Assembly: GCA_023129115.1 (NCBI GenBank)
Contig: JAGMCR010000003.1
Span: 1-64,000, forward strand
Source of the DNA: Candidatus Iainarchaeum sp.
GTDB taxonomy: Archaea; B1Sed10-29; WALL01
DNA: 64,000 nucleotides
Direction: 5' to 3'
Positions within the stretch are counted from its first letter, which is position 1; every line of letters starts with the position of its first letter. A program made the translations under genes and the position numbers. The notes beneath the pieces are model-generated. The model made no database searches, had not been told where the DNA came from, and saw nothing but the letters and a program-made list of their open reading frames with translations. Positions 4,198-35,865 of this stretch are shown in pieces.

Positions 4198-4947
4198 CTA
4201 GACACTGAACGCTTCTTCCGGGTTCACTAGCTTGATGCCGGTCGTGCTTATCTGGAGTGGGATTATGTCCTCGACGTGCTTGGTGCCGCGCATCTTGCGG
4301 ATGTAAAGGGTGCGGTTCGTGTCAGTGCCCATGCCAATGTAGTGCAGGAGGATGACCGAGTCGGCAACGTATTCCTCGACGCCGTACTTCGAGAATTTCA
4401 TTGGCCCCGCGCCCATGGTCTGCTCCGGTATTTCAGAGATGAGGACCGCTGTCAAGTCGCTCTTGCGAATCATGTACGTGAGCTTCAGAATCATGTTCCG
4501 GACTTCCATCTCGTCCTTCATCCTGATGCCCAGGGCCGGCACCGAGTCGATTACGAGCCGGCGCGCGCCGATTTCTCCCGCGGTCTGCATAATCTTTAGC
4601 ACGAGGCGGTCGATGTCCATGGCAGAGCTCATGGAATACTTTTCCTCGCTCTGGACGCCGGTCTTGGTGCCGGTCAGGTCGAGGATGACTAGCTTGCCCT
4701 CGTCCTCGAGCTTTTTGATGTCCCACCCGAACCGAAGCATGTCCTGCCTCGTCAATTCGGGCCGCTCGTCAACAGTGACGTAGAGCCCGGGCTCGCCGTG
4801 GAGGGCAGCGCCCTGGTAAAGGAACTGCATCCCGAAGATTGACTTGCCTGTGCCGCAGCCGCCGCTCAAAAGCACGGTCCTGCCGCGCGGGAAGCCCCCC
4901 TCAATCATGTTGTCGAGGCCTTCAATGCCTGTTGGTACACGCTCCAT
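4198..4947 (-). CDS. single-domain KaiC-like RecA-superfamily ATPase (KaiC-1)
   Basis: RVPTGIEGLD, Walker A GGCGTGKS, RLVIDS, GVEEYVAD, IRKMRGT. Confidence 0.93.
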   Translation of the reverse strand: MERVPTGIEGLDNMIEGGFPRGRTVLLSGGCGTGKSIFGMQFLYQGAALHGEPGLYVTVDERPELTRQDMLRFGWDIKKLEDEGKLVILDLTGTKTGVQSEEKYSMSSAMDIDRLVLKIMQTAGEIGARRLVIDSVPALGIRMKDEMEVRNMILKLTYMIRKSDLTAVLISEIPEQTMGAGPMKFSKYGVEEYVADSVILLHYIGMGTDTNRTLYIRKMRGTKHVEDIIPLQISTTGIKLVNPEEAFSV

Positions 4948-4993
4948 GTTCTCACCGATTCAACTACTTCGTTGCACATTAAAATACTTTACT

Positions 4994-5347
4994 TTAACTG
5001 AGGCTGGCGACCGCGCCGACAAGCTCTTCCGAAGAAAATGGCTTCTGTAGGAAGACAAGGCCGGGCGTTATCTTCTTCAGGTCTGCCTCGACGCCGACCT
5101 CGCGCGACACCGCCGTCACGACAACCACTGGCTTGTCGATGCCCCTCTTCTTCATTTCCTTGAGGACGGCGTCGCCGTGGAGCCGCGGCAGTATTATGTC
5201 CAGCACCACGAGGTCCGCGCGCCCAAGCCTGTCGAGGGCTTCCTTGCCGTCCTTCGCCACGTCAACGGTGTGGCCCGCTTTCTCGAGCACCATTTTCATG
5301 GACTTGGCCTCGTCCGGCTCGTCCTCAACCAGTAAAATCCTGCTCAT
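4994..5347 (-). CDS. stand-alone response regulator (REC only)
   Basis: ILLVEDE, DLVVLDIILP, VVTA, QKPF. Confidence 0.93.
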   Translation of the reverse strand: MSRILLVEDEPDEAKSMKMVLEKAGHTVDVAKDGKEALDRLGRADLVVLDIILPRLHGDAVLKEMKKRGIDKPVVVVTAVSREVGVEADLKKITPGLVFLQKPFSSEELVGAVASLS

Positions 5348-6297
5348 TTCTTTTTCCTCACAGCCGGCAGGGTGAAAAAGGCCGTGGTGCCCTTCCCCCT
5401 CTGGCTCTCAATCCAAATCTTGCCCCCGTGCTCCTCAATCACTTTCTTGCTGGCCCACAGGCCAACGCCGGAGCCGGGGACGTGTGTCTCCAGCTTGATG
5501 AACTTGTCGAATATTTTGGAGAGGTCTTTCTTCCTGATGCCCCTCCCAGTGTCCTTAATGCTTACGAGGATATAATCCTTTTGCTTTTTCGCGGAAATGC
5601 GGACATAGCCCTTGTCCGTGAACTTGACGGCGTTTCCCACGAGGTTCGTAATTGCGCGGGTGAGCCACCTCTTGTCCCCCCGCACGTAAAAGCCCTTTGG
5701 CACCTCGGCCTTGAGGGCAATCCCCTTGACCTTGGCCTTCGGCCTCTCGCCGTCGGCAATCTCGAGAATCAGGGCGCGCAGGTCCACCCGCTTGTTCTCT
5801 ACCACTGCCTTGCCCGCCTCAATGACCGAAAAGTCCAGGATTGCGTCGACCGTGGCCTGCAGCCGCCGGATGTTCCGGTACAGCATCTCAAGAATTTCCT
5901 TTTTCTTGGCCGGGTTTTTCTCCTTCTCCAGCAGGTCGAAGCCCAGCCCAAGTGTTGTGAGGGGTGTCCTCAGCTCGTGCGACACGTTCGTCACGAAGTC
6001 CGACTTCATCTCGTCCAGGTCCTTCAGCCGCTCATAAGAGTCGGTCAAGTCGTCCATCGCGTGCAGGAGCGCTTCCTTTGTCTTCTCGAGCTCTTTTGCG
6101 TGCGCGGAGTCCTCTGCCTCCTTTTTCCTGAGCCTCTGCAGCGCCTTCCTCAGTACGCGCTCGTGGGCCCGGGCCTCGTCCTCCACCCTCCTCTGCCAGA
6201 GGTTGACGACTATCAGGGCAAGGATTAGGGAAAACACTACCACGAAAGTCAGCACGAGCCCTGTTGCCTGTACCTCCAAGAGAACCACGAGCCCCAT
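5344..6297 (-). CDS. histidine kinase with one N-terminal TM helix and no sensor domain
   Basis: H-box SHELRTPL, N-box NLVGNAVKFT, G1 DTGRGI, F-box IFDKF, G2 GSGVGL. Confidence 0.93.
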   Translation of the reverse strand: MGLVVLLEVQATGLVLTFVVVFSLILALIVVNLWQRRVEDEARAHERVLRKALQRLRKKEAEDSAHAKELEKTKEALLHAMDDLTDSYERLKDLDEMKSDFVTNVSHELRTPLTTLGLGFDLLEKEKNPAKKKEILEMLYRNIRRLQATVDAILDFSVIEAGKAVVENKRVDLRALILEIADGERPKAKVKGIALKAEVPKGFYVRGDKRWLTRAITNLVGNAVKFTDKGYVRISAKKQKDYILVSIKDTGRGIRKKDLSKIFDKFIKLETHVPGSGVGLWASKKVIEEHGGKIWIESQRGKGTTAFFTLPAVRKKK

Positions 6298-6320
6298 AAG
6301 GCACTATGCGCTTATAAGGA

Positions 6321-7031
6321 TTACGCGAAGAAGTCCGACACTTTTATCTCGACGCCAGCCGCCCCAAGCGAGAACGGAATCCACTTGAGTGGGTGCACTG
6401 TGTTGAACATCCTCTTCACATAGATGCCGCGCTTGTTCCCCTCGAGCCTGAAGTGGATTGTCCCGTCGCAGATGTAGCTGATGGTCGCCACGTGCCTCGG
6501 CTCGTGCAGGCCCTCCTCGAGGACCACGACCGCCGCGGCCTGCGAGCCCTTCACCATCCCCACAAAAAGCTGGAGGAACTTGAACACGCTCGGCGACTCT
6601 GCGTAGAGCAGCATATCAGAAATAGAGTCAATCACGATTCGCGCCCCGCCGCCAAAGCCGCTAATCTCTTTCTTCAGCAGCCGCGTCAGCTCGTTCAGCT
6701 CGGTCAGCGACTGCATCACGTGCACGTTGGCCGGCTGCTCTGGAATCTCGCCGGAAACCCGCCATGAGTACCCGTCGATGAAGCAAATTTTGTCCAGGTC
6801 CTTCACGCCGAGCGCCTCGAGCCCGGCAATGGTTTGGGCCACAGGCTCCGACGTCACGACGTAGACACACCGCTGGTTTTCCAGCATGCCCTCTTTCGCG
6901 AACTGCCTGCAAAAAGTTGTCTTGCCAGTCCCGGGCGGAGCCTCAAGAAGAACCGTCGACTTTGCGGGGAACCCGCCGGCAAGGACGTCGTCGAGCCCGG
7001 GAATGCCTGTCCTTATCTTCATTTCAACCAC
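6321..7031 (-). CDS. KaiC-like ATPase (KaiC-2)
   Basis: TGIPGLD, Walker A APPGTGKT, FIDGYSW, RIVIDS, SYICDG. Confidence 0.9.
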   Translation of the reverse strand: MVEMKIRTGIPGLDDVLAGGFPAKSTVLLEAPPGTGKTTFCRQFAKEGMLENQRCVYVVTSEPVAQTIAGLEALGVKDLDKICFIDGYSWRVSGEIPEQPANVHVMQSLTELNELTRLLKKEISGFGGGARIVIDSISDMLLYAESPSVFKFLQLFVGMVKGSQAAAVVVLEEGLHEPRHVATISYICDGTIHFRLEGNKRGIYVKRMFNTVHPLKWIPFSLGAAGVEIKVSDFFA

Positions 7032-7087
7032 AAAGCATTCCTCCTAGGGCGGGGCATTGTTATTGACTAGGTGCAGGGCATTATTAA

Positions 7088-7873
7088 TTATTTTGGGTAA
7101 ACCACTGCCCTGAACTGGCAATAGTCGTCCCCCCGACCCCAGCAGTTCTCTTCCTTGACGTCGACGTTCTCTAGCTCGTAAAACGCGACGTACGCGCCCC
7201 GCAAAAGCCCGCGCACGAAGTGGCAGTAGGCCGCGTTGATGACTGGCATCCCCGCCGCGAACGCGCTCTCCTCGAGCCGCAGAATCTGCGCGGGGTAAGT
7301 GCTCTTCTCAACTTTTTCCTCCTTGAACGACGCGACGCCGACCCCGGAGTCGGCCATGAACAAGACGAGTGACTTGTTGAGGCTCTTGACGTCCTTCGGC
7401 TGCGTCTGCTTGACAATCCTCCGCCCGGCGTTCTCGCCGGCCTGGACCTCGTTGCGCTCCAGCTGGAACTGCTGCGCCACCTCGTAGGGCGCGTAGGCCA
7501 CCTCCCTGAGCAGGTCAACGCTCACTCCTTTGAAGCTCGGGCGCACGCCCTCCGGCGCGAGGTAGTCGAACGGCATTACCTGCCCGGCCGACATCACGGC
7601 CTGCTCGTCAATGCTGTAGCCCGCCTTCTTTATGCTGGCGATGATTTCCATTATCTTCACGCTCGACGCCACAAGCGCGGCCTGGAGCTTGTCCAGTTCC
7701 TGGCCCGGCGCGAACGCCCTCATCTCGCCATTCGCGAAGACCTGCACCACCACGTCGCCAAGCCTGGCCTCCATTAGCCCGAGCTTGCCGACCTGCTTGA
7801 GGGACTCTACCTTCGCCAGCTTCTTCATGTCCAGCTTTACGCCAAGGTTGTACTGGTAGCAGGCGGTCTTCAG
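7088..7873 (-). CDS. V4R-domain protein with N-terminal TBP-like repeat; probable CTG start at 7873 (ORF track starts at 7828)
   Basis: C-terminal YCHFVRGLLRGA..VKEENCWGRGDDYCQF (V4R); the in-frame 15-codon extension aligns with the paralog at 34950-35720. Confidence 0.8.
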   Translation of the reverse strand: MKTACYQYNLGVKLDMKKLAKVESLKQVGKLGLMEARLGDVVVQVFANGEMRAFAPGQELDKLQAALVASSVKIMEIIASIKKAGYSIDEQAVMSAGQVMPFDYLAPEGVRPSFKGVSVDLLREVAYAPYEVAQQFQLERNEVQAGENAGRRIVKQTQPKDVKSLNKSLVLFMADSGVGVASFKEEKVEKSTYPAQILRLEESAFAAGMPVINAAYCHFVRGLLRGAYVAFYELENVDVKEENCWGRGDDYCQFRAVVYPK

Positions 7874-8550
7874 ATTATCTCCTCCCGGTAGACAACAATT
7901 CCGGACTTGGTTATTTTGAAGGGGTACATTGCGTTCGAGTGCCGGACGCCACGCATCTTCACGACTTCCAATGCACGGCGGCGCTCGTTCTTGATTGGGA
8001 TGTTGTAGAGCGAAATGACGCCGTCAACCATGAACTCCTCAAGCGAGTATTCCGCGCCCTCGCGCGTTGCATAAGGCGCTTCCGCGGTGAAGAGGACCGT
8101 GCAGTCAAGGCCCTCCAGAAACCCAATCAGGCCAACTATGTTGCGCCTGAACTCAAACGGGTCCTCGGTGTTCATCTTCAGCAGTGTGAGGGTGTCGATT
8201 ACCACGCGATTCACGTTGTGGCGCGTGACGTAGGCCTGGAGCGTGTCGCTCAAGCGCTCCCAGTTGAAGCAGTCTACCGACACCAGGACTATGCTGCCGT
8301 TGTCAACCTGCTCCTGCAGCTTCCAGTCAAGGCCCTGGGACATGTTCTCGATTAGCTTCTCCGGCTTTTCCTCGAGCAGGACCATGAGGCCCTTGTCGCC
8401 AAGCAGCGCCCCGCGGTAAAGGAACTCCAGCCCGAAAGTCGTTTTTCCTGTCCCGGGCCCGCCGACGACCATCACGTGCCTCTTCTTGAGGAAGCCGCCG
8501 CCGAGCATCTCGTCAAGGCCCTCTATCCCAGTGGGGACTCTATCAACCAT
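7870..8550 (-). CDS. KaiC-like ATPase (KaiC-3)
   Basis: RVPTGIEGLD, GGPGTGKT, LLEE, RVVIDT, LEEFMVDG, VKMRG. Confidence 0.92.
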   Translation of the reverse strand: MVDRVPTGIEGLDEMLGGGFLKKRHVMVVGGPGTGKTTFGLEFLYRGALLGDKGLMVLLEEKPEKLIENMSQGLDWKLQEQVDNGSIVLVSVDCFNWERLSDTLQAYVTRHNVNRVVIDTLTLLKMNTEDPFEFRRNIVGLIGFLEGLDCTVLFTAEAPYATREGAEYSLEEFMVDGVISLYNIPIKNERRRALEVVKMRGVRHSNAMYPFKITKSGIVVYREEII

Positions 8551-8591
8551 TATACCACCAAGGGAGGTAACTCCCACTACCTATAAAAGGA

Positions 8592-9227
8592 TTACTTCGC
8601 CCTCAAGCGGAAGCCGCCGTCGCTGATTTCGTAGAAAAAGTCTTTTGCCGGAGTGGAGGTGCCCCGCATCTTGAGGATGCGCATGCCCTTCGCGGGGTCG
8701 AGGTGGATGACGCCGTCGCACAGCGAGCGGAAAGTGTTCTCTGCGTCGCTGTGGTAGGTCCCGAGGTCCAGCGTGAACAGGATGATTGACTGCTTGGCCT
8801 TTGTTATTGCGATTACTTGCTGCATGAAGCGCTCGATTTCCTCTTCGGCGCTGTAGAGCACGAGCGGCGTGAGCGAGTCGAACAGCACAATGGAGCCCTC
8901 CTCCAGGGCGTCCTCGATAAGGAAAGTGATTTTGCTCAGGTTGGCGAGCGAGTCGACCGCGGCCTTTCCGCCGCTGAGCCACGAGTAGCAGTCGATGAAC
9001 ACTGCCTCGAAATTGCTCTTGCCGCCGGACATTCCCGTCGTTATCTCGTCCGGCGTGTTGTTCGTCAGCACGACGACGCGCTTCACTTTTTCGGTGGTGC
9101 CCATCAGCGAAAGCGAGAAAGCTGTCTTGCCTGCGCCCGGCGCGCCCTGGACCAGCACGGCAGACGGCGAGGGCAAGCCTGGAACGATTTTGTTGAATTC
9201 CTTGAGTCCTGTCTTGAACGGGGGCAT
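8592..9227 (-). CDS. KaiC-like ATPase (KaiC-4), lacking the catalytic Glu
   Basis: GAPGAGKT, TNNTP in place of the EE motif, FIDCYSW, LFDSL, KMRGT. Confidence 0.85.
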   Translation of the reverse strand: MPPFKTGLKEFNKIVPGLPSPSAVLVQGAPGAGKTAFSLSLMGTTEKVKRVVVLTNNTPDEITTGMSGGKSNFEAVFIDCYSWLSGGKAAVDSLANLSKITFLIEDALEEGSIVLFDSLTPLVLYSAEEEIERFMQQVIAITKAKQSIILFTLDLGTYHSDAENTFRSLCDGVIHLDPAKGMRILKMRGTSTPAKDFFYEISDGGFRLRAK

Positions 9228-9295: not shown

Positions 9296-12037
9296 ATGCG
9301 CGGGCAGGCAGCCACAGAGTTCATTTTACTGCTGGCATTTATATTGCTTTTGATACTTCCCGCAGGGTATTACATATTCACCAACACAAGCGAGTCCACG
9401 CGCGTGCTCCAGGGAGACCTTGCGGTAAACACGCTCGCCAAGACAGCGGACTATGTCTATTACCAGTCGCCCGGCGCAAAACAGGTCGTGACCGTGTTCC
9501 TGCCGGGTGGGGTAGAATGGAGCGAGAGCTATATTGGCCACCCCACCGAGAGCGGCGGCGAAGAAATCAACCTCGCGCTCTACACCCAAACCGGGGAAAA
9601 GACGCACATCTTTGTTGGGACAGAGGGCGAGGTCCGCGGCACGTGGCCCGACAGCAACGGCAACTTCCGGTTCATGGTCAGGAAGACCGCGGCGGGATAC
9701 GTCATAATCGGGCCGTACGAGCAGACCTTCCTCCTCGAGCCGCAGTCCTACACCACCACAATGATTGCTGGGAGCGTTGACTCGTTCACACTCACCGCAA
9801 CCGAGCTGGACGGCTCGCCACGCACCCTGACGCTCACCCCCAACGGGGAAATCGCGGACTGGCTCTCCCTCGGGACAACCTCGCTCTACCTTGGCGCAGA
9901 CGCCCAGAACACCACCACCGTGACCATCACACTCCCAGTGAACACGAGCGCGGGCGTTTACACCGGCACCGTAGACGCGACCGATGGCGAGGTGGAGGAT
10001 GTCGTCTACATCACTGTTATTTCGCTGGGCCCGGTCACCCCGCCCGGCGGCATCCAGGGCGGGCTGCTTGTGGAAATAATAGAGCCGACCAACAGCACTT
10101 ACACAGAAATCCCTGTCGACCTCGAGTATACTGTGAACATGACCCCCAGCTGGTGCGGGTACTCGCTCGACGGCTCAGCCCTTACCACGGTATCCGGCAA
10201 CGTCAGCATGTTCCCCACCAACGGCCCCCACCACGTCAAAGTGCTGTGCGTCTCGTCGGACGGCAAGTCCGGGTGGGACGAGGAGTGGTTCACCACCGAC
10301 TTTGGGCTCGAGCCGTGGTGCTTCAACCTGACCATGCTCTGGGCATACAACAGCACTTACCATGACGTCATGGCTGAAATCAGCACGAGCAACAACGTAT
10401 ATGCCAACGAAATGCAGATAGTGGAGGACCAGCTCAGCTTCATTGACGTCACTTTCGAGTTCGCCATCAACCCTGATGCCGGGGGCTTTGTGATACACAA
10501 CATGTCGCAGGGGTGGGAGCACTACGAGTCAGACTCGCAGATAGACCCCATCCTGCAGTGGCAGATGAACAACGGGTGGGGCGCCACAGTATGCCAGCTG
10601 CCGGCGTACCAGAACCCTGGCCAGGAAGCGCTTGACATTTGCACGCTCTCGAAGGGCGAGGTGCCCGACACGCCGGGCGAAGTGCTGTTCCTAAGCACGA
10701 GGATATACTACCTGTCGCAAGCCTCGTCGGCACACGAGTCACACGTCGACTGGACTTACCTCACGGTCTGCTATGGCGAGGCAATCAAGAGGCTCACCAT
10801 AGAGTCGCCGCTGGATCCGGAGTACAACCAAAGCTGGGTCTGGTTCAACGTCAGCTCCAACGCGCTGATGGACTACGTGTGGTACTCGCTCGACGGCGCG
10901 GCCAACGTCACGATGCCTGGAGGACGGTATGCAACCTCTTCCAATGTGTCAGTGTCCCTCGGCCCGCACATGGTCACGTTCTACGCCAATGACTCGAACG
11001 GCAACATTCTCTCGAACTCGACCAGCTTCAACATCACTATTGCTGACACCACGCCGCCGGTCATAACAATAGTGTCGCCACTCAATGCGACATACACCAC
11101 GACCTGGGTGTGGATGAACATCACGCTCGACGAGAGCGGCAGCTGGGCGGGGTACTCGCTCGACGGCGCGGCCAACGTCACGATGTCAGGCAGCGGCACG
11201 GCATGGTACTACAACGCGAGCGGCTTGGCAGAAACGGGCCACAACGTCACGTTCTACGCCAATGACTCGTCAGGCAACATGGGCGCTTCAGCGACGCGCT
11301 GGTTCACTGTGGACACGACTGTATCTGCGTGCCCGTTCACCATTGACCTGTGGGAGCTGGGCGCGGACAAGCCGCAGCCAATTGAGTTCACCAGCGGGCT
11401 GAACACGACCGCGAATACGTTTGGAATCACCGGCGCGAGCGACGGCTGGGACTGGGCATGGAACGTGTACGACACCGGGAGCACATGCGTGTTCTTCAAC
11501 GGAGAGCAGTACGTGGACTCGACTGACCCGACTGCTGGCGAGGTAAACACCGGCGTGAACGCGGCGGATATGCAGCGTGTGAGTATCGGCGACAACACTG
11601 CGTACGGCGGCAACGTGTGCAACAACGATGGCCACGGCAGCGGGGCGTACGCCGTCGAGCTAAACGTGACGAGCGCCATGTACAGCGAAATAGCCAGCGG
11701 CGGGACCGCGACGCTGTACTTTGACTGGATTGTTGACGACAATGGCCTGGACAACAACGACGACGTTTGGGTCAAGGCACGGTTCGGGAACAGCACGACA
11801 ATGACGTACCTCGGCACGCAGGTCGGCGGCGGCAACGACGACGCGTACGCGGACATACTGTACGACCAGAACCCCAACGACCAGAGCGGCTCGGAAGCGA
11901 TTGACGTGTCGAGCCTGATTACCGCGGCCGGGGACTACTACGTAGAACTCGGCGGAAGGGTCAGGGACTGGGACAACAACGAGGGCGCGGACTTTGAGTT
12001 CGACAACGTGAACCTCAACATAACTTGCGCACCGTGA
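9296..12037 (+). CDS. large class III-signal pilin-like adhesin with repeated Ig-like domains
   Basis: N-terminus MRG|QAATEF plus hydrophobic helix; three YSLDG repeats; Thr/Asn-rich with many N-x-S/T sequons. Confidence 0.85.
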   Translation: MRGQAATEFILLLAFILLLILPAGYYIFTNTSESTRVLQGDLAVNTLAKTADYVYYQSPGAKQVVTVFLPGGVEWSESYIGHPTESGGEEINLALYTQTGEKTHIFVGTEGEVRGTWPDSNGNFRFMVRKTAAGYVIIGPYEQTFLLEPQSYTTTMIAGSVDSFTLTATELDGSPRTLTLTPNGEIADWLSLGTTSLYLGADAQNTTTVTITLPVNTSAGVYTGTVDATDGEVEDVVYITVISLGPVTPPGGIQGGLLVEIIEPTNSTYTEIPVDLEYTVNMTPSWCGYSLDGSALTTVSGNVSMFPTNGPHHVKVLCVSSDGKSGWDEEWFTTDFGLEPWCFNLTMLWAYNSTYHDVMAEISTSNNVYANEMQIVEDQLSFIDVTFEFAINPDAGGFVIHNMSQGWEHYESDSQIDPILQWQMNNGWGATVCQLPAYQNPGQEALDICTLSKGEVPDTPGEVLFLSTRIYYLSQASSAHESHVDWTYLTVCYGEAIKRLTIESPLDPEYNQSWVWFNVSSNALMDYVWYSLDGAANVTMPGGRYATSSNVSVSLGPHMVTFYANDSNGNILSNSTSFNITIADTTPPVITIVSPLNATYTTTWVWMNITLDESGSWAGYSLDGAANVTMSGSGTAWYYNASGLAETGHNVTFYANDSSGNMGASATRWFTVDTTVSACPFTIDLWELGADKPQPIEFTSGLNTTANTFGITGASDGWDWAWNVYDTGSTCVFFNGEQYVDSTDPTAGEVNTGVNAADMQRVSIGDNTAYGGNVCNNDGHGSGAYAVELNVTSAMYSEIASGGTATLYFDWIVDDNGLDNNDDVWVKARFGNSTTMTYLGTQVGGGNDDAYADILYDQNPNDQSGSEAIDVSSLITAAGDYYVELGGRVRDWDNNEGADFEFDNVNLNITCAP

Positions 12038-26952: not shown

Positions 26953-29643
26953 ATGGCAAGGCGGGCCCCCGGGGCAGGGGTGGAAAAAAAGGGCGGCAAA
27001 AAGGCGGGGAAGGCCGTTGGGGTGCATAAAGCTGTTTTTGACAGTGTCACGGACGGCATTGTCGTGCTGGACAAGACCGGCAGGATAACCAAGATAAACA
27101 GGGCAATCACGCAGACTGGCGGGTACACTGAAAAAGACGTGGTGGGAACGCGCTTGGCTGCCCTGAAGATGTTCACCCCCGAGAGCCTTGCGAAGATGCT
27201 CGCGGCGTTCGCCAGGAGAGTGCTCGGGCAGGCCACGCCGCCTTACGCTGTCGAGCTGCGCACAAAAAAGGGAAAAACGATATTTGTTGAAATCCATGGC
27301 TCGCCCCTGCGGGAGGGCGGCAGAATAACCGGGAGCGTTGCCATACTCCGTGACATCACCAAGCGGAAGAAGGCAGAGGAAGCGCTGCGCGAGAGCGAAG
27401 AGAAGTTCAAGGACGTCACCGTGGCATCGGCTGACTGGGTGTGGGAGGTTGACAGGACCGGCAAGTACACTTACGCGTCAGGCAAGGTAAAGCAGATTTT
27501 GGGTTATACGCCTAAAGAGTTGTTGAGGCTGCACTTCTACGACCTAATGCCTAAAGACGAGGCCAAAAAGGCGATGGCGGAATTCAACGCCGCTCTTAAG
27601 ACGGGGGCGCCAATCGTTGACTTAGAGAACCTCAACCTCACGAAAGACGGTGGGGAAATATTCTTCCTCACGAACGGTGTCCCGATTTATGATGACAAAA
27701 GAAAGGTGGTTGGGTATCGCGGGGTTGACAAAGACATCACCGAGCGCAAGAAGGCAGAGGAGGCACTGAAAAAGAGCGAGGAGAGGTACAGGGGGTTGGT
27801 GGAGGGAACCGAGGCCGGGTTTTATACTGCTGCGCTGAACGGCGACGCGCTTTACGCCAGCAAATTCGTCGAGAGGATTGTGGAGGGGTTCAAGGCCGCG
27901 GAGTGGCGCAAGAAAGGGTTCTGGGCAGCCCGCATCCACCAGAACGACAGAAAGGCCGTGCTCAGGGAGTGGTCCAGGGGCGTCAAGTCAAAAAAGCCGT
28001 TCGTCCTGCAGTACCGGTTCGTGTGCAGGGACGGCACCCCAGTGTGGGTGGAGGACCACGCGTTCCCAAGCCCATCGAAGGACATGATTGAGGGGTTTAT
28101 CCTTGACATCACCGAACGCAAGAAGGCAGAGGAGCACCTGGCGCACATTGACTTGGTCCTGCGGGCGGTGCGCAACGTGAACCAGCTCATTGTAAGGGAG
28201 AAAAGCTCTGAGAAGCTGCTCAAAAGCGTTTGCGAGACACTTACCCGGGAACAGGGCTACAACAGCGCGTGGGCATGCCTTTTTGACGGGGGAAGCAAGC
28301 CTGTGATGGCTGCTGAGTCGGGGATTGGGACAAAGTTTAGCGCAATGGAAAAGCTGATGAAGAAGGGAAAGCTTACCAGGTGCGGGGAGAAAGCGCTGGG
28401 CCAAAACCGCGTTGTGGTCACTGAGGACCCGGCCAAGTCGTGCAGGGGCTGCCCGCTCCACTGTTTTTATGCGGGCAAAAACGCGTTGACCGTGCGCCTC
28501 GCGCACGGCGGCAGGACCTATGGCCTCCTTTCTGTGTCAGTGCCCGCGGCCATAGGCGTGGACAGGGAAGAGCAGTCGCTGTTCATGGAAGTCGCTGGAG
28601 ACATTTCCCTGGCGCTCCACTCTATTGAATTGGGGTCCAAGCGCGTGAAGGCAGCGGAAATGCTGCGCGAGAGCGAGGAAAAATACAAAGTGTTTTGGGA
28701 GAACACTGGCACAGCGATGTGCACCGTTGAGGCGGATAAAACTATTTCCTTCGCTAATGAGACCTTCAGTAAGCTATGCGGGTACACACTAAAAGAAATT
28801 GAGTGGAAAAAGAAGTGGACAGAGTTCGTGACCAAAGAGTACCTGAAAAGGATGGAGGAGTACCACACAGAAAGACGGAAGAAAGATGGCGAGGCGCCGA
28901 GCGAATACGAATTTGACTTTGTGGGCAAGAAGGGTGCCGTGAGAAAGGTTTTCCTTAGTGTCCAACTTATCCCGGGCACAAAAAAGTCCATCTGTTCGCT
29001 TATAGACATCACCGAGCGAAAAAAGGCAGAGGAAATGCTGCGAAAGGAAGACAAGCGCCTCGAAGGGCTTACGGCAGACCTATCCTTCCTCTACGAAGTA
29101 ACCAGCATTGCTTTTGCTGCAGAAACAGAGCAGGAACTGCTGGGCAAAGCACTGGAAGAGAGCTGCAGGGCGCTTGGCGCAGAACTTGGTATTGTGTGGA
29201 TGCATGACAAGGAACACGGGGAACTGGTCGCGCGCAAGTGCTTCGGCCTGACAGAGCAGGAATGCGCAGGCATGTCCATGAAGCCCGGTGAGGGGTGCGC
29301 TGGCAAGTCATTCCAGCGACGAGCCCCGCTTATCTCAACCAAGCGGCGGTTGAGGGGGTACAAGCCCACAACTTCTATTTGCGTCCCCCTGACAACTAAG
29401 GGGGGCACCATCGGCGTGGTGGAGGTGCTCTCGCTCTCAACCGAACTGGGGATGGGCGAACAACGGTTGCTCAAAATCGTGGCCGACCAGGTGAGCACAG
29501 CTATTAATGCCCTAAGGGCGCGGGGGGAACTGCAAAAATCCGTCAAGGAACTCAAGAAAATTAACAAGTTCCTTGTGGGAAGGGAAATGCGGATTATCGA
29601 ACTCAAAAACGAGGTGAAAGAGTTGAGGGATAAGTTAAAATAG
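26953..29643 (+). CDS. cytoplasmic multi-sensor protein (PAS-PAS-PAS-GAF-PAS-GAF) with no kinase domain
   Basis: Four DIT.RKKAEE PAC ends, two GAF-like segments, ends KFLVGREMRIIELKNEVKEL; TTTATATA at 26923 favours ATG 26953. Confidence 0.85.
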   Translation: MARRAPGAGVEKKGGKKAGKAVGVHKAVFDSVTDGIVVLDKTGRITKINRAITQTGGYTEKDVVGTRLAALKMFTPESLAKMLAAFARRVLGQATPPYAVELRTKKGKTIFVEIHGSPLREGGRITGSVAILRDITKRKKAEEALRESEEKFKDVTVASADWVWEVDRTGKYTYASGKVKQILGYTPKELLRLHFYDLMPKDEAKKAMAEFNAALKTGAPIVDLENLNLTKDGGEIFFLTNGVPIYDDKRKVVGYRGVDKDITERKKAEEALKKSEERYRGLVEGTEAGFYTAALNGDALYASKFVERIVEGFKAAEWRKKGFWAARIHQNDRKAVLREWSRGVKSKKPFVLQYRFVCRDGTPVWVEDHAFPSPSKDMIEGFILDITERKKAEEHLAHIDLVLRAVRNVNQLIVREKSSEKLLKSVCETLTREQGYNSAWACLFDGGSKPVMAAESGIGTKFSAMEKLMKKGKLTRCGEKALGQNRVVVTEDPAKSCRGCPLHCFYAGKNALTVRLAHGGRTYGLLSVSVPAAIGVDREEQSLFMEVAGDISLALHSIELGSKRVKAAEMLRESEEKYKVFWENTGTAMCTVEADKTISFANETFSKLCGYTLKEIEWKKKWTEFVTKEYLKRMEEYHTERRKKDGEAPSEYEFDFVGKKGAVRKVFLSVQLIPGTKKSICSLIDITERKKAEEMLRKEDKRLEGLTADLSFLYEVTSIAFAAETEQELLGKALEESCRALGAELGIVWMHDKEHGELVARKCFGLTEQECAGMSMKPGEGCAGKSFQRRAPLISTKRRLRGYKPTTSICVPLTTKGGTIGVVEVLSLSTELGMGEQRLLKIVADQVSTAINALRARGELQKSVKELKKINKFLVGREMRIIELKNEVKELRDKLK

Positions 29644-29673
29644 GCAAAAGAGTTAGTAGGAGGATAGGTTGAA

Positions 29674-30786
29674 ATGAAAGCAGGCGTGGGCATAAGCAAG
29701 AACAAAAACTCATTCAAAGCAGGTGAGGAAGCAGCAAAGCAGGCTGTGAAGGGCTCGGGCAAGCCCAACTTTGTGGTGGTGTTCAGCACAGAGCGCTTCC
29801 AGCAAAAACAATTGCTTTCAGGCATAAGGTCTGTCACAAGCAGTGCCAAGCTCGCCGGATGCTGCGGCGCAGGCGTTATAGCAGGAGAAGAGCTCAGCAA
29901 AGACGCTGTTGTGGTCATGGCAATGCGCGGCAGCCCGGCGAGCGTTGGCATCGGCAAGGGCATAAGCAAGGGCCCGCACGAGGCGGGAAGGGATTCTGTG
30001 GCAGGCCTCAAAAAGCCCGGCACAATAATCTTTTTGCCGGACGGCTTGACAGGCAACGTGACAAAAGTTGTGGCAGGCGCACATGAAACACTTGGGGCAG
30101 CCTACCGCCTCGTTGGCGGCGGGGCAGGCGACAACCTGAAGTTCATCAAGACGTACCAGTTCATCAATGATGAAGTGCACTCGGACGCCGTCGTGACTGC
30201 GCTGCTGGGCCAGAAAGTGGGGGTGGGCATAGCGCATGGCTGGACACCCATCGGCGAACCAATGATAGTGACAAAGGCAAAAGGCAACGTGGTGCACGAA
30301 ATCGATGGAAGGCCTGCGCTCGATGCCTACAAGAAGCAGTTCCCGGGCGACAGGATAAGCGCCAAGGGCTTTGCGAAATTCGCCGCGGAGCACCCGCTTG
30401 GCATGCCCCAGAGGACTGGCGAGTACTTAATCCGCGACCCGCTTATGGCAGAGAAAGATGGCAGCATCAAGTGCGTGGCCGAGGTGCCCGAGAACAGTGC
30501 TGTGCGCATCATGCAGGGCGACAAGCAATCCCTCATTGCAGCGGCCGAGCAAGCGGCCCGGCAGGCAATGGCGGGGGTGAAAAAGCCTGGCGCGCTGCTC
30601 GTGTTTGACTGCGTGTCGCGGCTGCTGTTCCTGGGCGATGACGCAAAAACAGAGGTAAAGGCAGTGAGGGATATTGTCGGCAACGTGCCAACAGCCGGGT
30701 TCTTCACGTTCGGCGAAGTTGGGTCCACTGCCGGCCCGCCAATGTTCCACAACAAGACAATCGTGGTGTGCGTGCTGCCGGAGTGA
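29674..30786 (+). CDS. stand-alone FIST sensory protein
   Basis: GGGAGD, HGWTPIG..IVTKAKGNVVHEIDGRPA, FDCVSR, GFFTFGE, FHNKT. Confidence 0.92.
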   Translation: MKAGVGISKNKNSFKAGEEAAKQAVKGSGKPNFVVVFSTERFQQKQLLSGIRSVTSSAKLAGCCGAGVIAGEELSKDAVVVMAMRGSPASVGIGKGISKGPHEAGRDSVAGLKKPGTIIFLPDGLTGNVTKVVAGAHETLGAAYRLVGGGAGDNLKFIKTYQFINDEVHSDAVVTALLGQKVGVGIAHGWTPIGEPMIVTKAKGNVVHEIDGRPALDAYKKQFPGDRISAKGFAKFAAEHPLGMPQRTGEYLIRDPLMAEKDGSIKCVAEVPENSAVRIMQGDKQSLIAAAEQAARQAMAGVKKPGALLVFDCVSRLLFLGDDAKTEVKAVRDIVGNVPTAGFFTFGEVGSTAGPPMFHNKTIVVCVLPE

Positions 30787-30834
30787 GTGGGATGAAGAAG
30801 CGGTCGGTTGCCACAGGGCTGGAGGAGATGCTTA

Positions 30835-31929
30835 GTGCTAAAGGTTAAACTCAGCGCCAAGCTGTTCGTGCTGTTCCTCCTGGTGTCAATCGTGCCCTTG
30901 TCCGTCGTCATGTTATTTGTGTTTGACTACGGGGAACGCGTAGAAAAAACCGCGCTGGAGCGCAGGCAGAAAATGATGGACACCGCCCTCAACGCCACGC
31001 AGAAGGCCCTGGCACAAGTAGGGGAAAAAGAGATAATGAGGATAGCGGCCTACGCCGCGTCTGGCATCACTACTTACCTGAGATACACCCCGGACGCGAC
31101 AATGGAAGAGCTGCAGGCGAGCGAGGAATTCCAGGGAATTGCGGTGCATCCTGTGGGTGAGACAGGGTACACTGCAGTCCACGACAGGAACGCTATAAAC
31201 TATTTTCATGTCAACCCCGGAATAATCGGGACAGACCTGCACGCACTCGAGGAAAAGCTGCCCGGGTTCTGGGCAGTGCTGTCAGCCAACCTGAATGGCA
31301 CAGAGTCAGCAGGCTACTATGAGTGGGAGGACGCTGACGGCGTCATCAGGGACAAGTACATGTGCTGCGTCGCGGTGGATGAGAGAGACTTGAGGGTGTG
31401 TGCCACGACTTACATGGACGAGTTCACGAAACCGCAGGAAGAGCTCGGGTTGGTGTTCGCAGAAGAGACTAGGAAGAGGACGGCTGAATATGCTGAAGAA
31501 AAAAGGCTGTTGGAGGGGACTATACTGCTCTTCTTTTTTGTTAGCGCCGCGTTCATCGTTCTGGCCTCGTTCCTGATAGCACGGGTCGTCACATCACCAC
31601 TCAAGAAACTGATGGCTGGCATGAAAAAATTCAGCCGCGGGGAGAGGAATAAGCGCGTCAAGCTGGATACCCGCGACGAGATTGGCGAGATGGCGGGAGT
31701 GTTCAACGAGATGGCTGGGGAAATCCAGTCCTACACAAAAAGGCTGGAGAGCACGGTCAAAGAGAGGACAAAGGAACTCGCCAAGAAGACGGTGGAGCAG
31801 GAAAAAGCGTTGGAGTCCCTGAAGAAGACGGCTAAGTTCTTGATTGGCAGGGAAGAAAGAATCATCGGGCTAAAGAAAAAGGTAAAAGAGCTCGAGAAAC
31901 AAGTGGAAGAGCTCAAGCAGGAGCGCTGA
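30835..31929 (+). CDS. membrane Cache-HAMP sensor with no kinase domain
   Basis: Two TM helices; VGETGYTAV..HVNP and GYYEW Cache-like motifs; HAMP (P..L..DEIGEMA..FNEM); GRE tail. Confidence 0.85.
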   Translation: MLKVKLSAKLFVLFLLVSIVPLSVVMLFVFDYGERVEKTALERRQKMMDTALNATQKALAQVGEKEIMRIAAYAASGITTYLRYTPDATMEELQASEEFQGIAVHPVGETGYTAVHDRNAINYFHVNPGIIGTDLHALEEKLPGFWAVLSANLNGTESAGYYEWEDADGVIRDKYMCCVAVDERDLRVCATTYMDEFTKPQEELGLVFAEETRKRTAEYAEEKRLLEGTILLFFFVSAAFIVLASFLIARVVTSPLKKLMAGMKKFSRGERNKRVKLDTRDEIGEMAGVFNEMAGEIQSYTKRLESTVKERTKELAKKTVEQEKALESLKKTAKFLIGREERIIGLKKKVKELEKQVEELKQER

Positions 31930-31961
31930 CGCACAGAAAAGGGCTTAAATGCGCGGCGCTT

Positions 31962-32954
31962 ATGGCTCAATCAGGAAACGGTGATGAAATGAAGAAGCTA
32001 AAGGACACGCAACTTACTGGCCTCATGGCCGTGGTGCTGATAATCTCGATTGCGGCGCTGTTCCTCGGCGCAAGCGCGTACCTCAGGGAGCCGGCGCCCG
32101 CCACTGGCGTGCATCTCGCCGAGGCGCCTGCCGGGACAGTTGTCGAGGCATACGAGGGCCCGAAGTACACCGGGACCGGCACGGGCTACGTGATAGAGTT
32201 CGAGAACGGGAAGCGCCTGCACTTCGCCGGCGACACCGCGCTCATCAGCGACTTCAAGTTCGTCATCCGCGACCACTACCACCCGGACATTGGATTGTTC
32301 CCCGCCGACGGGTTCTACTGCATGGACTCGAAGCTGGCGGCTGTCGCGGCCTCGTGGGTGAACCCAGAGTACGCAATCCCTTACCACTACGGCACTTTCC
32401 CGGAGATGCCGCCGAACCCGGAAGAGTTTGTGGCGGCGCTGGACGAGCTGAGGCTCAACAACGAGACCCGGGCAAAGCCGTTCATAGCAGAGCCGGGGAT
32501 TGAGTGGGAGATTGAGGGAATCAGGGGGACCTGGCTCGGCCACGGCTCCTACTTCTTTGTGTCGCCCGGCGGAGTCAGGATTCTTGTTGACCCGTGGCTG
32601 GAGGCGAACCCAATGTGCCCAGCCAAGTTCAAGGACATTGAGCACTTCAGGGAGGCCTACGGCGACATCGACTTAGTGCTCCTGACGCACGGGCACGTCG
32701 ACCACTTCACCATTGGCGAGCTGATAAAAATTTGGGACGCCTACGAGCCAGTGGTAATCGCGCAGTGGGAGCTTGGCGGCTACATCGCCACAGAAAGTGA
32801 TATGCCTGTCTGCCTGATAAACAAGGGCGGAATCGTCACAAAGGAAAAGATATTGCTGCAGGGGATTGTCCCGCCAGAGATAGTCAACGCCAAGAAGCTT
32901 GACGGCATAAAAATAATGATGGTGCAGGCAGAGCACAGCTCTTCCCCGCCATAA
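31962..32954 (+). CDS. exported, circularly permuted UPF0173-like metallo-beta-lactamase-fold hydrolase
   Basis: Signal/TM helix; HFAGDT and IPYHYGTFP precede WLGHG, ILVDPWL, THGHVDH, and the protein ends AEHSSS. Confidence 0.85.
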   Translation: MAQSGNGDEMKKLKDTQLTGLMAVVLIISIAALFLGASAYLREPAPATGVHLAEAPAGTVVEAYEGPKYTGTGTGYVIEFENGKRLHFAGDTALISDFKFVIRDHYHPDIGLFPADGFYCMDSKLAAVAASWVNPEYAIPYHYGTFPEMPPNPEEFVAALDELRLNNETRAKPFIAEPGIEWEIEGIRGTWLGHGSYFFVSPGGVRILVDPWLEANPMCPAKFKDIEHFREAYGDIDLVLLTHGHVDHFTIGELIKIWDAYEPVVIAQWELGGYIATESDMPVCLINKGGIVTKEKILLQGIVPPEIVNAKKLDGIKIMMVQAEHSSSPP

Positions 32955-32967
32955 GCGGTGACTTGGA

Positions 32968-34569
32968 TTGGTAAGGCTTCTCTTCAGGCACAAGGTCACC
33001 ACAACATTTTGCGTCCTGCTGGTGTTCGCCGTCGCGTCTGTCACATACATGACAATTAGCACGCAGCAGGCGCAGCTTATGGCCAACCTAATCGATGCGA
33101 GGCTGTCAGAGGCAAAGATTATAGCGATGAGCGTTTCGTCGGCAGAAGTGAACTTTTCCCCTGCACACAAGCGCACCATAATCAAGGAGATGGGGATTGG
33201 GAAAGGCATTGTTTATTGCAGGCTGGTGAAGCCAAGCGGCGAAATATTCAGCTCAAGCATTCCTGCCGAGCATGGGCTGTTCATCGATGACCCTGCAACC
33301 TTCGCGGCCGAGCCAGTCGTCATCGACGACGTGTGGGAGGGGCAGCGGATTAAGGCCGCGGTCGCGCCAAGCTACCGCGGCTACACGGTTTGGGTTGGCT
33401 TCTCCACCGAGGAAGTCGGGAAAGCCGTGTCAGGAATGGTTTTGTACAACGTGCTCCTTGCTTTGGCCATTGTTGGCGTGGGGGCGGTTGTCTCGTTCTT
33501 CCTCGCCCAGAAGCTAACCCACCCAATCGACGAGCTTGGCGAAGGGGTCATAGCGATTGGCGAGGGCAATATGGGCCACAGGGTGCGCGTCATGTCGCAC
33601 GACGAACTTGGCGACCTGGCACGGGCGTTCAACTGGATGAGCGAACACTTGGAGCAGAGCAAGGCAGGGCTGGAAAAAACTGTGGAGGGGCGGACGGAGG
33701 AACTCACCACGAAGTCGGGAAAGCTCGAGAAGACCGTGGAAGAGCTTGAACAGATGCGCGCCGCCATGGAGAGCGTGATGGAAGACCTTTCCGAGGCGAA
33801 CGAGGGCCTGGAGCACGCGGATGAGATGCGCGAGGCCTTCCTCAGAAACATTGCACACGAGCTCAAGACCCCAATAACCATCATGAAATTGGACATAGAG
33901 CGCCTAATAAAAAGGGAGCGCAAAAAAGTCAAGCCGTACAAGGGGACCAAGGCCATCGGCCAAATGGACAACATAGAAATAATGGAAGACATTTTGGGTG
34001 GGACTGACAGGTTCAGTGTGACAGTCAAGAAAATACTCCACCTCTCGCGCCTCGAGGCTGGCGCAGTCGTGTACACCAAGCACATGCACAGCCCAGAAAA
34101 AATAGTTGATGGCGTGCTGGAGGAGTACCATCCACTTGCAAAGGGGCAGGGCCTATACCTCAAGGAAAAGCTGGGGAAATTGCCAAAAGTCTTTGTGGAC
34201 AGGGAGCAAATAGAGGAAGTCTTCCACAACTTAATCGGCAACGCAATAAAGTTCACCGAGGAGGGGGGCGTGACAGTCAGTGCCATGAAAGCCGGGGAGT
34301 ACGTGCGCTTCGAGGTGGAGGACACAGGCATTGGCATACCCCCAGACGCAATCCCGCACCTATTCACCAAGTTCTTCCAGGTCAGCAGCGGCCTGGCGCG
34401 CACCGCGCCTGGCACGGGCCTGGGCCTCGCGATATCCAAGGCCACTGTCGAGGCGCACGGGGGGAAGATTTGGGTTGAAAGCGAGTATGGCAAGGGCAGT
34501 AAGTTTATATTCATCTTGCCCATAGGTAAAGGGGCGGGCAAGCGCCCAGCAAAAAAGAGGGGGGGCTAA
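32968..34569 (+). CDS. membrane HAMP sensor histidine kinase
   Basis: Two TM helices, HAMP, AHELKTPI, NLIGNAIKFT, DTGIGI, LFTKFFQ, GTGLGL. Confidence 0.95.
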   Translation: MVRLLFRHKVTTTFCVLLVFAVASVTYMTISTQQAQLMANLIDARLSEAKIIAMSVSSAEVNFSPAHKRTIIKEMGIGKGIVYCRLVKPSGEIFSSSIPAEHGLFIDDPATFAAEPVVIDDVWEGQRIKAAVAPSYRGYTVWVGFSTEEVGKAVSGMVLYNVLLALAIVGVGAVVSFFLAQKLTHPIDELGEGVIAIGEGNMGHRVRVMSHDELGDLARAFNWMSEHLEQSKAGLEKTVEGRTEELTTKSGKLEKTVEELEQMRAAMESVMEDLSEANEGLEHADEMREAFLRNIAHELKTPITIMKLDIERLIKRERKKVKPYKGTKAIGQMDNIEIMEDILGGTDRFSVTVKKILHLSRLEAGAVVYTKHMHSPEKIVDGVLEEYHPLAKGQGLYLKEKLGKLPKVFVDREQIEEVFHNLIGNAIKFTEEGGVTVSAMKAGEYVRFEVEDTGIGIPPDAIPHLFTKFFQVSSGLARTAPGTGLGLAISKATVEAHGGKIWVESEYGKGSKFIFILPIGKGAGKRPAKKRGG

Positions 34570-34573
34570 GCAA

Positions 34574-34939
34574 ATGAAGGTAATGATTGTCGAGGACGAG
34601 CCGGATGTCGCGAAAGCAATCAAGGGCGTGCTCGTGGACGAAGGATTTGGGGTGGAGATAGCCCTCGGCGGCAAGGATTGCCTGGAGAAGCTGAAGAAAA
34701 GCGAGCCGGACGTCATCCTTCTCGACATACTCATGCCCATAATGGACGGCACAGAAGTCCTGCGGCGGCTGAAGAAGGACAAGAAGACCGCGAAAATCCC
34801 GGTGATTGTGCTCACAGCTGTTTCTGCCGAGTCAGAGGTCAAGAAAACGCTTGAGGAAATCGACCCCAAGATTGGGTTCATCGAAAAGCCGTACAGCATC
34901 GACCAGATACTCGCGGAGATAAAGAAGCTCGTGAAATAA
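34574..34939 (+). CDS. stand-alone response regulator (REC only)
   Basis: VMIVEDE, PDVILLDILMP.MDG, VLTA, EKPY. Confidence 0.95.
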   Translation: MKVMIVEDEPDVAKAIKGVLVDEGFGVEIALGGKDCLEKLKKSEPDVILLDILMPIMDGTEVLRRLKKDKKTAKIPVIVLTAVSAESEVKKTLEEIDPKIGFIEKPYSIDQILAEIKKLVK

Positions 34940-34949
34940 GGCGGCAGCT

Positions 34950-35720
34950 TCACTTTGCGAGCATGCTGGCCTCGAACTCGCAGTAAGTGTCGCCAAGGCC
35001 CCAGCACTTTGTTTCTTGGACAGTGATGTTGAACGCCCCCATGAAGTGTATGACGGCAGACCTCAGCAGCTCTTTTTCCAGGTGGCAGTACGGCTCGCCA
35101 ATCTGTGGGCATGCCGTGTACGCACAGCCGTACACGCGGGCAACAAAAAGGCCTTTCTTTGTTTTTTCGCACTCGAGTTCGCCGAGCTTCATCTCCGAAA
35201 AAAACTTTTTGAGCGCGGTCAGGAGCTCGTCCAGGCTTTGCGGCCGGGCCTGTTCCACTGCGCACCTCCCAAGTTCGCTGCCCACGAGCTCCATGAGCCT
35301 CTTCGTGGCAAAAGCGCCCTTTAGCTCAAGCGAGGCCAGGTGAATGTGGGGGAACAGCCGGTAGCTGACCCCGCCCTTCTTCACCGCGGGCAGGCTCGAG
35401 TAGTGCTTGGCGTTTGCTTCTTCCTTGGTGTGCGTTGCCAGGACAGCAGAGGCATCGAGGCCTAGGCCAAGTGCCTTGCCCATGTCCACGAGCGCCTGGG
35501 CTATCTTGGCCACTACCTTGGGCAGGCAGGCGGATGGGTCTTCGTGGTCGAGGTACACGACGCGCAGCAAGCCATTCGGAAAGACCTGGAAGCCGAAGCC
35601 ATCAAACGTGGCTTGCGCGAGTTCCGCGCCCCTGACGTTCTTGAAGTAATCAATAGAAGAAACGAGTTTGCTTATGTCAATTGGCTTCCCGAGGTCGTAG
35701 AGTTCCGAGACCGCTTGCAT
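34950..35720 (-). CDS. V4R-domain protein with N-terminal TBP-like repeat (paralog of 7088-7873)
   Basis: YCHLE..VQETKCWGLGDTYCEF; TATA at 35743-35750 favours ATG 35720. Confidence 0.82.
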   Translation of the reverse strand: MQAVSELYDLGKPIDISKLVSSIDYFKNVRGAELAQATFDGFGFQVFPNGLLRVVYLDHEDPSACLPKVVAKIAQALVDMGKALGLGLDASAVLATHTKEEANAKHYSSLPAVKKGGVSYRLFPHIHLASLELKGAFATKRLMELVGSELGRCAVEQARPQSLDELLTALKKFFSEMKLGELECEKTKKGLFVARVYGCAYTACPQIGEPYCHLEKELLRSAVIHFMGAFNITVQETKCWGLGDTYCEFEASMLAK

Positions 35721-35865
35721 TAAAAAGATTTCACGCGGACCGTATATAAATGTTTCATGGGGGTGCGAACGAATCGTAAAGCACGAAGAACACCAGGGCA
35801 AGGATTATTTACTGCTGTTGGCCGGCACGGCAAAAGCCTTAAACCCCAAAACCCGATTTTTTAGC

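Follow-up and report, generated by a model that had tools for sequence, protein, structure and literature searches.

The 64,000-nucleotide stretch of Candidatus Iainarchaeum DNA analysed here (the window) encodes two sensor proteins that have no output domain and end in the same C-terminal helix, the GRE tail, together with two histidine kinases, HK1 and HK2, that carry a coiled-coil motif, the LED module, ahead of the DHp domain. We lean towards the view that they represent a split sensor-kinase system of a widespread and unnamed type, in which the GRE tail couples the sensor in trans to the LED kinase. Functional coupling of GRE sensors and LED kinases is strongly supported, and docking of the tail on the LED coil is plausible from the sequences. 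Both features by which we define the proposed pair, a C-terminal match to the tail profile and a LED module in heptad phase with the phospho-accepting histidine (phospho-His), are present in the window.

Genomic association of GRE sensors and LED kinases

The co-occurrence of GRE and LED repeats in three distant lineages. Among 301 Patescibacteria genomes, both are found in 25, GRE only in 6, LED only in 2 and neither in 268 (Fisher p = 1e-28). The corresponding counts are 17, 7, 0 and 177 for 201 genomes of the archaeal phylum to which locus L078 belongs (p = 2e-19) and 4, 1, 1 and 25 for 31 genomes of the window's own phylum (p = 8e-4); these p values overstate independence because the genomes within a phylum are related.

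Kinase presence as such does not explain the link: HisKA is found in 256 of the 301 Patescibacteria genomes (a count that takes in the unpublished genome G218) but GRE in 31 and LED in 27. Furthermore, GRE is found in none of the 5 HisKA-positive genomes of the window's own phylum that are without a strong LED match.

The two motifs are also close neighbours. LED is found on the same strand as GRE, under 3.5 kb downstream of it, in 22 of the 25 Patescibacteria and 16 of the 17 archaeal-phylum genomes that contain both. An earlier note on this DNA, made from the sequence of the window alone, had named independent distribution of the motifs as the result that would speak against its proposal; the counts and the gene adjacency show the opposite. 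The same note had suggested that several sensors share one kinase, and this agrees with the 47 GRE matches in the 25 double-positive Patescibacteria genomes, compared with 25 LED-kinase open reading frames (ORFs), one in each.

Gene order was analysed for the 93 GRE genes that are followed by 900 nt or more of sequence. The next gene is a kinase in 40 cases, another GRE sensor in 9 and some other gene in 38, with none in the remaining 6. The other genes include those for PAS proteins (6), CheR (5), REC (3) and V4R (2), as well as solute-binding proteins, SpoIIAA-like proteins, HisKA_2 kinases and FIST. Junctions between GRE and kinase genes are tight: 18 of the 40 overlap (12 by 4 nt, as ATGA), 17 fall within 30 nt and 5 at 31-100 nt.

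Kinases linked to GRE are those that carry LED. A strict LED motif is present in 36 of the 57 kinases that come first within 4 kb downstream of GRE compared to 5 of 34 other kinases of the same loci (Fisher p = 8e-6), and a looser motif in 43 of 57 compared to 6 of 34. Counted per locus (79), a LED kinase lies within 8 kb downstream in 51 and is convergent in 1, while 12 loci end too early to tell; a LED-motif kinase is thereby found in 52 of 67 informative loci. The HK2 orthologues of G001, a genome of the same genus, and of G004, one of the same family (LMNMVEDL, LLNMMEDL; loci L095 and L094), directly follow a PAS-GRE gene with an ATGA overlap.

Some of these kinases have no sensor of their own. 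The L076 and L078 kinases consist of LED repeats, HisKA and HATPase_c only and directly follow a PAS-GRE gene, and at least 6 of the 57 GRE-linked kinases have at most 110 residues and no transmembrane (TM) segment before the first LED copy. Both modules are also found in natural fusions: protein P0258 of locus L029 has the order PAS-PAS-GRE-linker-LED-HisKA-HATPase-REC-REC-Hpt, and P0264 is similar. Finally, tail and LED diverge together. Over 31 pairs the correlation is 0.56, with a partial r of 0.47 when DHp is taken into account (permutation p = 5e-4); for tail and DHp given LED the partial r is 0.13.

A number of loci show variations of gene content. In five of them (L020, L050, L060, L063 and L068) CheR comes directly after the GRE gene, and after CheR stands a hybrid kinase of the 4HB_MCP-HAMP type whose coiled coil ahead of the H-box is rich in Gln/Glu; in L020, L050 and L060 a second, LED-bearing kinase comes next. 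These CheR/4HB_MCP loci may be a methylation-adapted branch of the GRE/LED system. Genome G005, which is 85% complete and has no HisKA or LED match, encodes, right after a FIST gene, a protein of 124 aa in which a GRE tail is joined to a short helical region at the N-terminus (locus L093, 8161-8532, minus strand). In L074, from a metagenome-assembled genome (MAG) labelled Francisella tularensis, two GRE-tail genes are followed by other genes.

Sequence and register of the GRE tail and the LED module

The two GRE sensors of the window differ in architecture. One is a cytoplasmic protein with four PAS and two GAF domains, encoded at 26953..29643 on the plus strand (ORF, Pfam and a database gene model of 896 aa, P0018); a longer ORF is possible from a TTG at 26764. 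The other, at 30835..31929 on the plus strand (ORF and Pfam; database model P0001, 364 aa; second possible start, TTG at 30808), is a membrane sensor with an sCache-like extracellular domain, TM2, HAMP and a signalling helix (S-helix) with an ERT signature. Their C-termini read ...ELKKINKFLVGREMRIIELKNEVKELRDKLK for the PAS/GAF sensor and ...SLKKTAKFLIGREERIIGLKKKVKELEKQVEELKQER for the Cache-HAMP sensor. Both do end in the tail, as the earlier note had stated: the G-R-E codons are located at 29578-29586 and 31846-31854, within tails at 29515..29640 (plus strand, tail profile E = 3.7e-19) and 31783..31926 (plus strand, E = 4.1e-17), and the proteins stop 21-27 residues past GRE. Neither sensor has a HisKA, HATPase_c or other output domain in Pfam, and neither qualifies as a histidine kinase. 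The Cache-HAMP sensor has no Pfam match to MCPsignal, so it is not classed as a methyl-accepting chemotaxis protein; some HAMP-GRE relatives bear that name in the source, yet carry PF00672 alone.

The tail is a helix of about 40 residues with the consensus ELERFNRLAVGRELKMIELK, in which G, R, E and one K are invariant over 90 aligned rows. Of the genome's 6,693 ORFs with 80 aa or more, 2 have the strict pattern, and these are the two window sensors, whose tails have Leu two residues before G where the consensus has Ala or Ser. Neither Pfam nor NCBIfam has a model for the tail, and a PDB profile search gave chance coiled-coil matches only.

How widespread the tail is emerges from exhaustive profile searches, for a word-based homologue search with the HAMP-plus-tail region returned 3 proteins only. 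Using a profile built from 7 sequences (the window and relatives) against 1.84 billion proteins, we obtained 10,219 cluster representatives at E <= 1e-3, 70 of them at E <= 1e-10. In the best 149 matches, the window Cache-HAMP protein excluded, the motif falls within 45 residues of the C-terminus in 136; 10 have an internal motif only and 3 were missed by the regular expression. Carriers among the 120 matches listed have PAS, GAF, HAMP, Cache or CHASE domains, or no Pfam domain, and their source names include Patescibacteria, Aenigmarchaeota, Diapherotrites and others; HisKA or HATPase_c was found in none of the 120.

We also scanned 185,579 species genomes with the tail. At least 600 stretches matched, 524 were confirmed and 80 loci from many bacterial and archaeal phyla were kept. 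In these loci 98 of 100 tail domains are C-terminal, and a stop codon follows 18-57 residues after the motif in 79 of 81 motif instances. The genes downstream have their own starts and TM segments. The tail is thus a natural end, and simple truncation of a kinase, an alternative that the earlier note had raised, is not supported by the C-terminal position or by the domain content of the 120 carriers. Where the tail is internal, it stands ahead of PocR (in 6 of 10 proteins scanned), CHASE or LED, and the residues after it form an acidic linker of 40-60 residues and not a continuous helix.

The LED module has the form A-x-L-N-(I/M)-(L/M)-E-D in kinases adjoining GRE genes, and the MEDL segment of the earlier note is a degenerate copy of it. 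ELE-x4-A-x4-M(E/D)DL, which both window kinases had been said to share before DHp, is indeed present in HK1 (ELEQMRAAMESVMEDL) and HK2 (ELEKTKEALLHAMDDL). HK1 (32968..34569, plus strand; Pfam) is composed of a TM sensor region, HAMP, S-helix, LED, HisKA and HATPase_c, with the phospho-His codon at 33856-33858. Its LED module (...AAMESVMEDL...) lies at 33730..33831 on the plus strand (LED profile E = 7.9e-11) and has Ser at the Asn position, 28 residues before the phospho-His. HK2 (5344..6297, minus strand; Pfam) has one TM helix, a coiled coil with LED, HisKA and HATPase_c and no sensor domain; its LED module (LLHAMDDL; 6004..6105, minus strand; E = 1.3e-9) has His at the Asn position, and the spacing to the phospho-His is again 28. 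Both are complete kinases: PF00512 (HisKA) scores 31.1 bits in HK1 (cut-off 26.9) and 59 bits in HK2, the H-boxes are AHELKTP and SHELRTP, and PF02518 (HATPase_c) follows on the same chain with 106.6 and 94.1 bits.

In an alignment of the kinase motif over 35 rows the window kinases fit without gaps, and A12 and D19 are invariant. The distance from the LED Asn to the phospho-His is 28, 35, 42, 49, 56 or 63 residues, and in 35 of 38 cases it is divisible by 7. Accordingly, LED is placed on a coiled coil that runs into DHp helix 1. In some kinases of the candidate phyla radiation (CPR), LED stands before a PAS domain instead, and some kinases have 2-5 tandem LNILED repeats of 21 residues each. 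No Pfam or NCBIfam model covers LED and the PDB profile search found nothing. GRE and LED were compared as possible homologues and this was rejected (hhalign probability 0.5%).

Two side observations concern the pairing of tail and module. The tandem LNILED repeats (2-5 copies) sit at the N-terminus of otherwise sensor-less kinases in L069, L076, L078, L079, L089 and L092, and such kinases are always paired with the tail subtype QRxxELxRLAELERFQKLTVGRELKMIELKKEIEEL. Loss of Asn in both window kinases together with Leu in both window tails is seen in one lineage only, and may be a compensating change.

Sensor and kinase are in register. By BLASTP, residues 230-340 of the Cache-HAMP sensor match residues 149-262 of HK1 with 30% identity (E = 2e-13). 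The two had been described as aligning gaplessly from TM2; there is no gap past TM2, but one of 3 residues inside it. The constant offset of 78 puts G347 of the sensor (the G of GRE) opposite S269 in MESVMEDL of HK1, which bears out that GRE faces the MEDL segment at equal distance from the membrane. The S-helix that follows HAMP, with its ERT signature, was reportedly described by Anantharaman, Balaji and Aravind in 2006. In the Cache-HAMP sensor as in HK1, HAMP leads into ...V(K/E)(E/G)RT(K/E)EL, and GRE and LED continue that coiled coil. Whereas an S-helix joins two domains of one chain, GRE ends its chain, and GRE and LED are separate modules 20-27 residues past ERT.

This register extends beyond the window. 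Among 22 sensors examined, the distance from ERT to the G of GRE is 20 in 9 of HAMP type and 13 in 10 of PAS type, and 16 of 21 kinases have a distance of 20 between ERT and the N of LED; in the window both spacings are 27. The exact register claimed from two proteins is therefore a property of the family. The charges of the first HAMP helices are a different matter. They are opposite in the window, +5 for the Cache-HAMP sensor (PLKKLMAGMKKFSRG) and -4 for HK1 (PIDELGEGVIAIGEG), as claimed, but are not opposite in 4 other HAMP-sensor/HAMP-kinase loci examined. Thus charge complementarity looks specific to the window.

For the same-genus pair of L095 (two LED-DHp segments and two tails, with alignments) the predicted complex scored 0.21 against a mark of 0.32 in a single run without controls, which makes docking neither more nor less likely. 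A single-sequence fold of residues 340-575 of the L029 fusion had a mean predicted local distance difference test (pLDDT) value of 63.8, a confidence too low for packing; it gives separate helices for GRE (26-67) and LED (93-120) with a non-helical stretch between them.

Proposed mechanism, alternatives and known systems

We propose that the GRE tail would be the output of sensors that have no enzymatic or DNA-binding domain, coupling them in trans to a HisKA kinase in which a LED module precedes DHp helix 1. Most likely, dimeric GRE helices would pack on outward-facing conserved residues of the LED coil, giving a heteromeric helical bundle. From the heptad pattern, the N, E and D of LED are predicted on the outside of a parallel dimeric coil, and hydrophobic residues appear to extend past the a/d core in both motifs. 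Two GRE and two LED helices packed as a four-helix unit could then carry ligand-induced movement of the sensor to DHp, and would shift the balance of autokinase and phosphatase activity towards the receiver-only regulator. Several sensors would share one kinase. We infer physical contact here, as well as its stoichiometry and the direction and sign of the signal. In the window, HK1 probably receives the input of both GRE sensors, of the FIST protein and of its own extracellular domain, and HK2, with its membrane anchor only, may also be served by GRE sensors.

A number of observations weigh against coupling of tail and LED. There is no LED match in 6 of 31 and 7 of 24 GRE-positive genomes in the two larger sets (the genomes being MAGs and the LED profile missing variants). 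Kinship of the genomes within a phylum inflates the Fisher p values; similarly, the covariation pairs are related and non-independent, and their segments are short. In the window, FIST and MBL genes stand between the sensor genes and HK1, and no GRE gene adjoins HK2. Three further points also favour a different explanation. The LED Asn is present in all 35 rows save HK1 (S) and HK2 (H), which leaves the window kinases with a degenerate module. Of the 67 informative loci, 15 have no LED kinase in reach: in 4 the kinase lacks LED, and in 11 a stretch of at least 2.5 kb contains no kinase. GRE is also found in cis ahead of PocR or CHASE modules with no LED following, and is therefore not an exclusive LED partner. 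All three would fit a tail that is a homodimerising or stabilising coiled coil, like the helices at the C-terminus of short LOV proteins; sensors and kinases would be true partners, PAS or HAMP would touch the kinase at DHp or CA, and LED would serve another purpose in that kinase clade. We regard this as rather unlikely, since the tail covaries more with LED than with DHp, GRE and LED are equidistant from the S-helix, the N, E and D of LED fall on predicted outward-facing heptad positions, and GRE comes just before LED in both fusions.

The same linkage data bear on three other explanations. The tail might bind another product of the operon, for instance the receiver-only regulator or, at some loci, CheR, and the sensors would then act alongside the kinase or downstream of it. 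In favour, most loci have a receiver-only gene behind that of the kinase, REC matches are found in 59 of the 80 loci, and CheR is the next gene in 5 of the 93 cases. Receiver-only regulators, however, accompany very many kinases that have no GRE partner (compare the HisKA and GRE counts in Patescibacteria), and the specific coupling is with LED and not with REC, which makes this improbable. Independent signalling, in which sensors and kinases are linked as a co-inherited cassette, would account for the GRE genes without a kinase nearby. It seems to us quite improbable, as stop and start codons overlap, kinases without a sensor come directly after PAS-GRE genes, natural fusions exist and the pairing recurs in bacterial and archaeal phyla that are far from each other. 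We give hardly any weight to tails being remnants of truncated or decaying kinases, assembly artefacts or chance resemblances. A weak hhalign match of the tail's first half to the stretch of LED-DHp just before the H-box (probability 27%, 18 columns), in a comparison made to see if the tail is a degenerate DHp helix 1, points that way, but sequence and C-terminal position are conserved over the 10,219 clusters, the stop codons follow at the short distance described above, and the downstream genes start independently and bring TM segments of their own.

Coupling of GRE tails to LED kinases could be taken further, in a reading that we put forward tentatively. GRE and LED would be a universal, portable plug and socket: any sensor ending in GRE might assemble non-covalently on a LED coil, giving combinatorial receptors with 1-6 sensors per kinase. 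LNILED repeats would be arrays of sockets, CPR bacteria and DPANN archaea, with their small genomes, would widen their sensing with very few kinases, and thousands of orphan PAS, HAMP and GAF proteins would be explained.

NosP-NahK and H-NOX-HahK are three-component systems in which the gene for an output-less sensor adjoins that for a histidine kinase, and the sensor is presumed to bind the kinase directly and so to modulate it. The GRE/LED system is similar in this respect, and the window FIST protein resembles NosP. Unlike NosP and H-NOX sensors, which are single globular domains not known to have a common docking tail, unrelated PAS, GAF, Cache-HAMP, CHASE and PocR sensors here share one C-terminal helix, and the kinases one coiled-coil motif.

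Kinase functions divided between chains are also known. According to the reports on CheA3/CheA4 of Rhodobacter and Hik36/Hik43 of Synechocystis (PMC3591291, PMC7656254), the kinase is split between phospho-acceptor (P1/HPt or HisKA) and catalytic domains. One kinase function is thus spread over two polypeptides that must associate, as we propose here, but the split in the window is between sensor and kinase, within the coiled-coil linker. HK1 and HK2 are not split kinases in the CheA3/CheA4 sense, as defined in PMC3591291, since HisKA and HATPase_c are on one chain in each. In RetS-GacS, a case of kinase heteromerisation, RetS acts on the kinase through helical-domain contacts (PMC5992135); RetS is itself kinase-like with a DHp, whereas GRE sensors have neither DHp nor CA. 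The kinase-less photosensor RpBphP1 offers another likeness, since its output resides in C-terminal helices that engage a partner protein: its helical HOS domain binds a repressor (PMC6899989). HOS is a two-helix, repressor-targeting unit; the GRE tail is a single helix of different sequence, linked to kinases.

A census of archaeal two-component systems (PMC5847659) concludes that signalling in archaea must rest largely on protein-protein contacts; GRE and LED are not mentioned in the passages of it considered here. No description of either motif was found in the searchable full-text literature by motif strings and concepts, a body of text outside which most subscription journals and supplements fall. 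Trans-acting sensors of histidine kinases are a known kind; a dedicated, very widespread pair of helix modules is apparently undescribed.

Output-less PAS, GAF, HAMP and Cache proteins are abundant in annotations and usually unexplained. The present data offer a testable rule, that a C-terminal GRE helix marks a sensor working with a LED kinase, and it spans DPANN archaea to Planctomycetota. If docking is true, it would be a new coupling mechanism for two-component systems, and partners could be assigned from sequence alone for thousands of orphan sensors and sensor-less kinases. It would also provide a modular connector for synthetic receptors, the plug-and-socket reading implying a natural orthogonal connector for engineered signalling.

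Genes and neighbourhoods in the window

The source genome (1.25 Mb, 88.6% complete), whose relatives are DPANN-like archaea, has HK1 and HK2 as its only HisKA kinases and two receivers only. HK1 and both GRE sensors belong to one apparent operon of six genes spaced 4-48 nt on the plus strand (26953-34939). Between the two sensor genes lies a stand-alone, NosP-like protein with FIST_N and FIST_C at 29674..30786 (plus strand; PF08495 157 bits, PF10442 116.8 bits). This architecture, within the HK1 operon, is that of NosP/FIST accessory sensors; the NCBIfam NosP score is 82.8 bits, below the equivalog cut-off of 450. From gene context and NosP-family similarity, it is likely an accessory sensor. 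Elsewhere, a FIST gene separates the GRE gene from that of the LED kinase in L067 and adjoins the GRE gene in L093.

A membrane-anchored MBL-fold protein is encoded between the Cache-HAMP sensor and HK1 at 31962..32954 (plus strand; Pfam, NCBIfam PRK00685 148 bits), in the slot that solute-binding proteins occupy in related operons. In L016, L019 and L028 (Aenigmatarchaeota and other archaea), SBP_bac_3, Peripla_BP_6 and ABC_sub_bind genes lie between the GRE sensor and LED kinase genes. The operon ends with a receiver-only response regulator at 34574..34939 (plus strand; Pfam), which starts 4 nt after HK1. Convergent to it is a gene for a V4R-domain protein (34950-35801, minus strand), and a V4R-domain gene adjoins the orthologous kinase/receiver pairs in L094 (9842-10639) and L095 (4813-5640).

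HK2 likewise has a receiver-only response regulator downstream (4994..5347, minus strand; domain search). The pair is found at 4198-9227 on the minus strand amid four genes for KaiC/RadA-like ATPases (4198-4947, 6321-7031, 7870-8577 and 8592-9227) and a V4R-like gene (7088-7828), which suggests a KaiC-type module linked to the two-component pair. Next to this region, at 9296-12037 on the plus strand, the window encodes a secreted protein of 913 aa that has Ig-like repeats and a signal peptide of archaeal class III (pilin-type), and for which Pfam matches are weak only.

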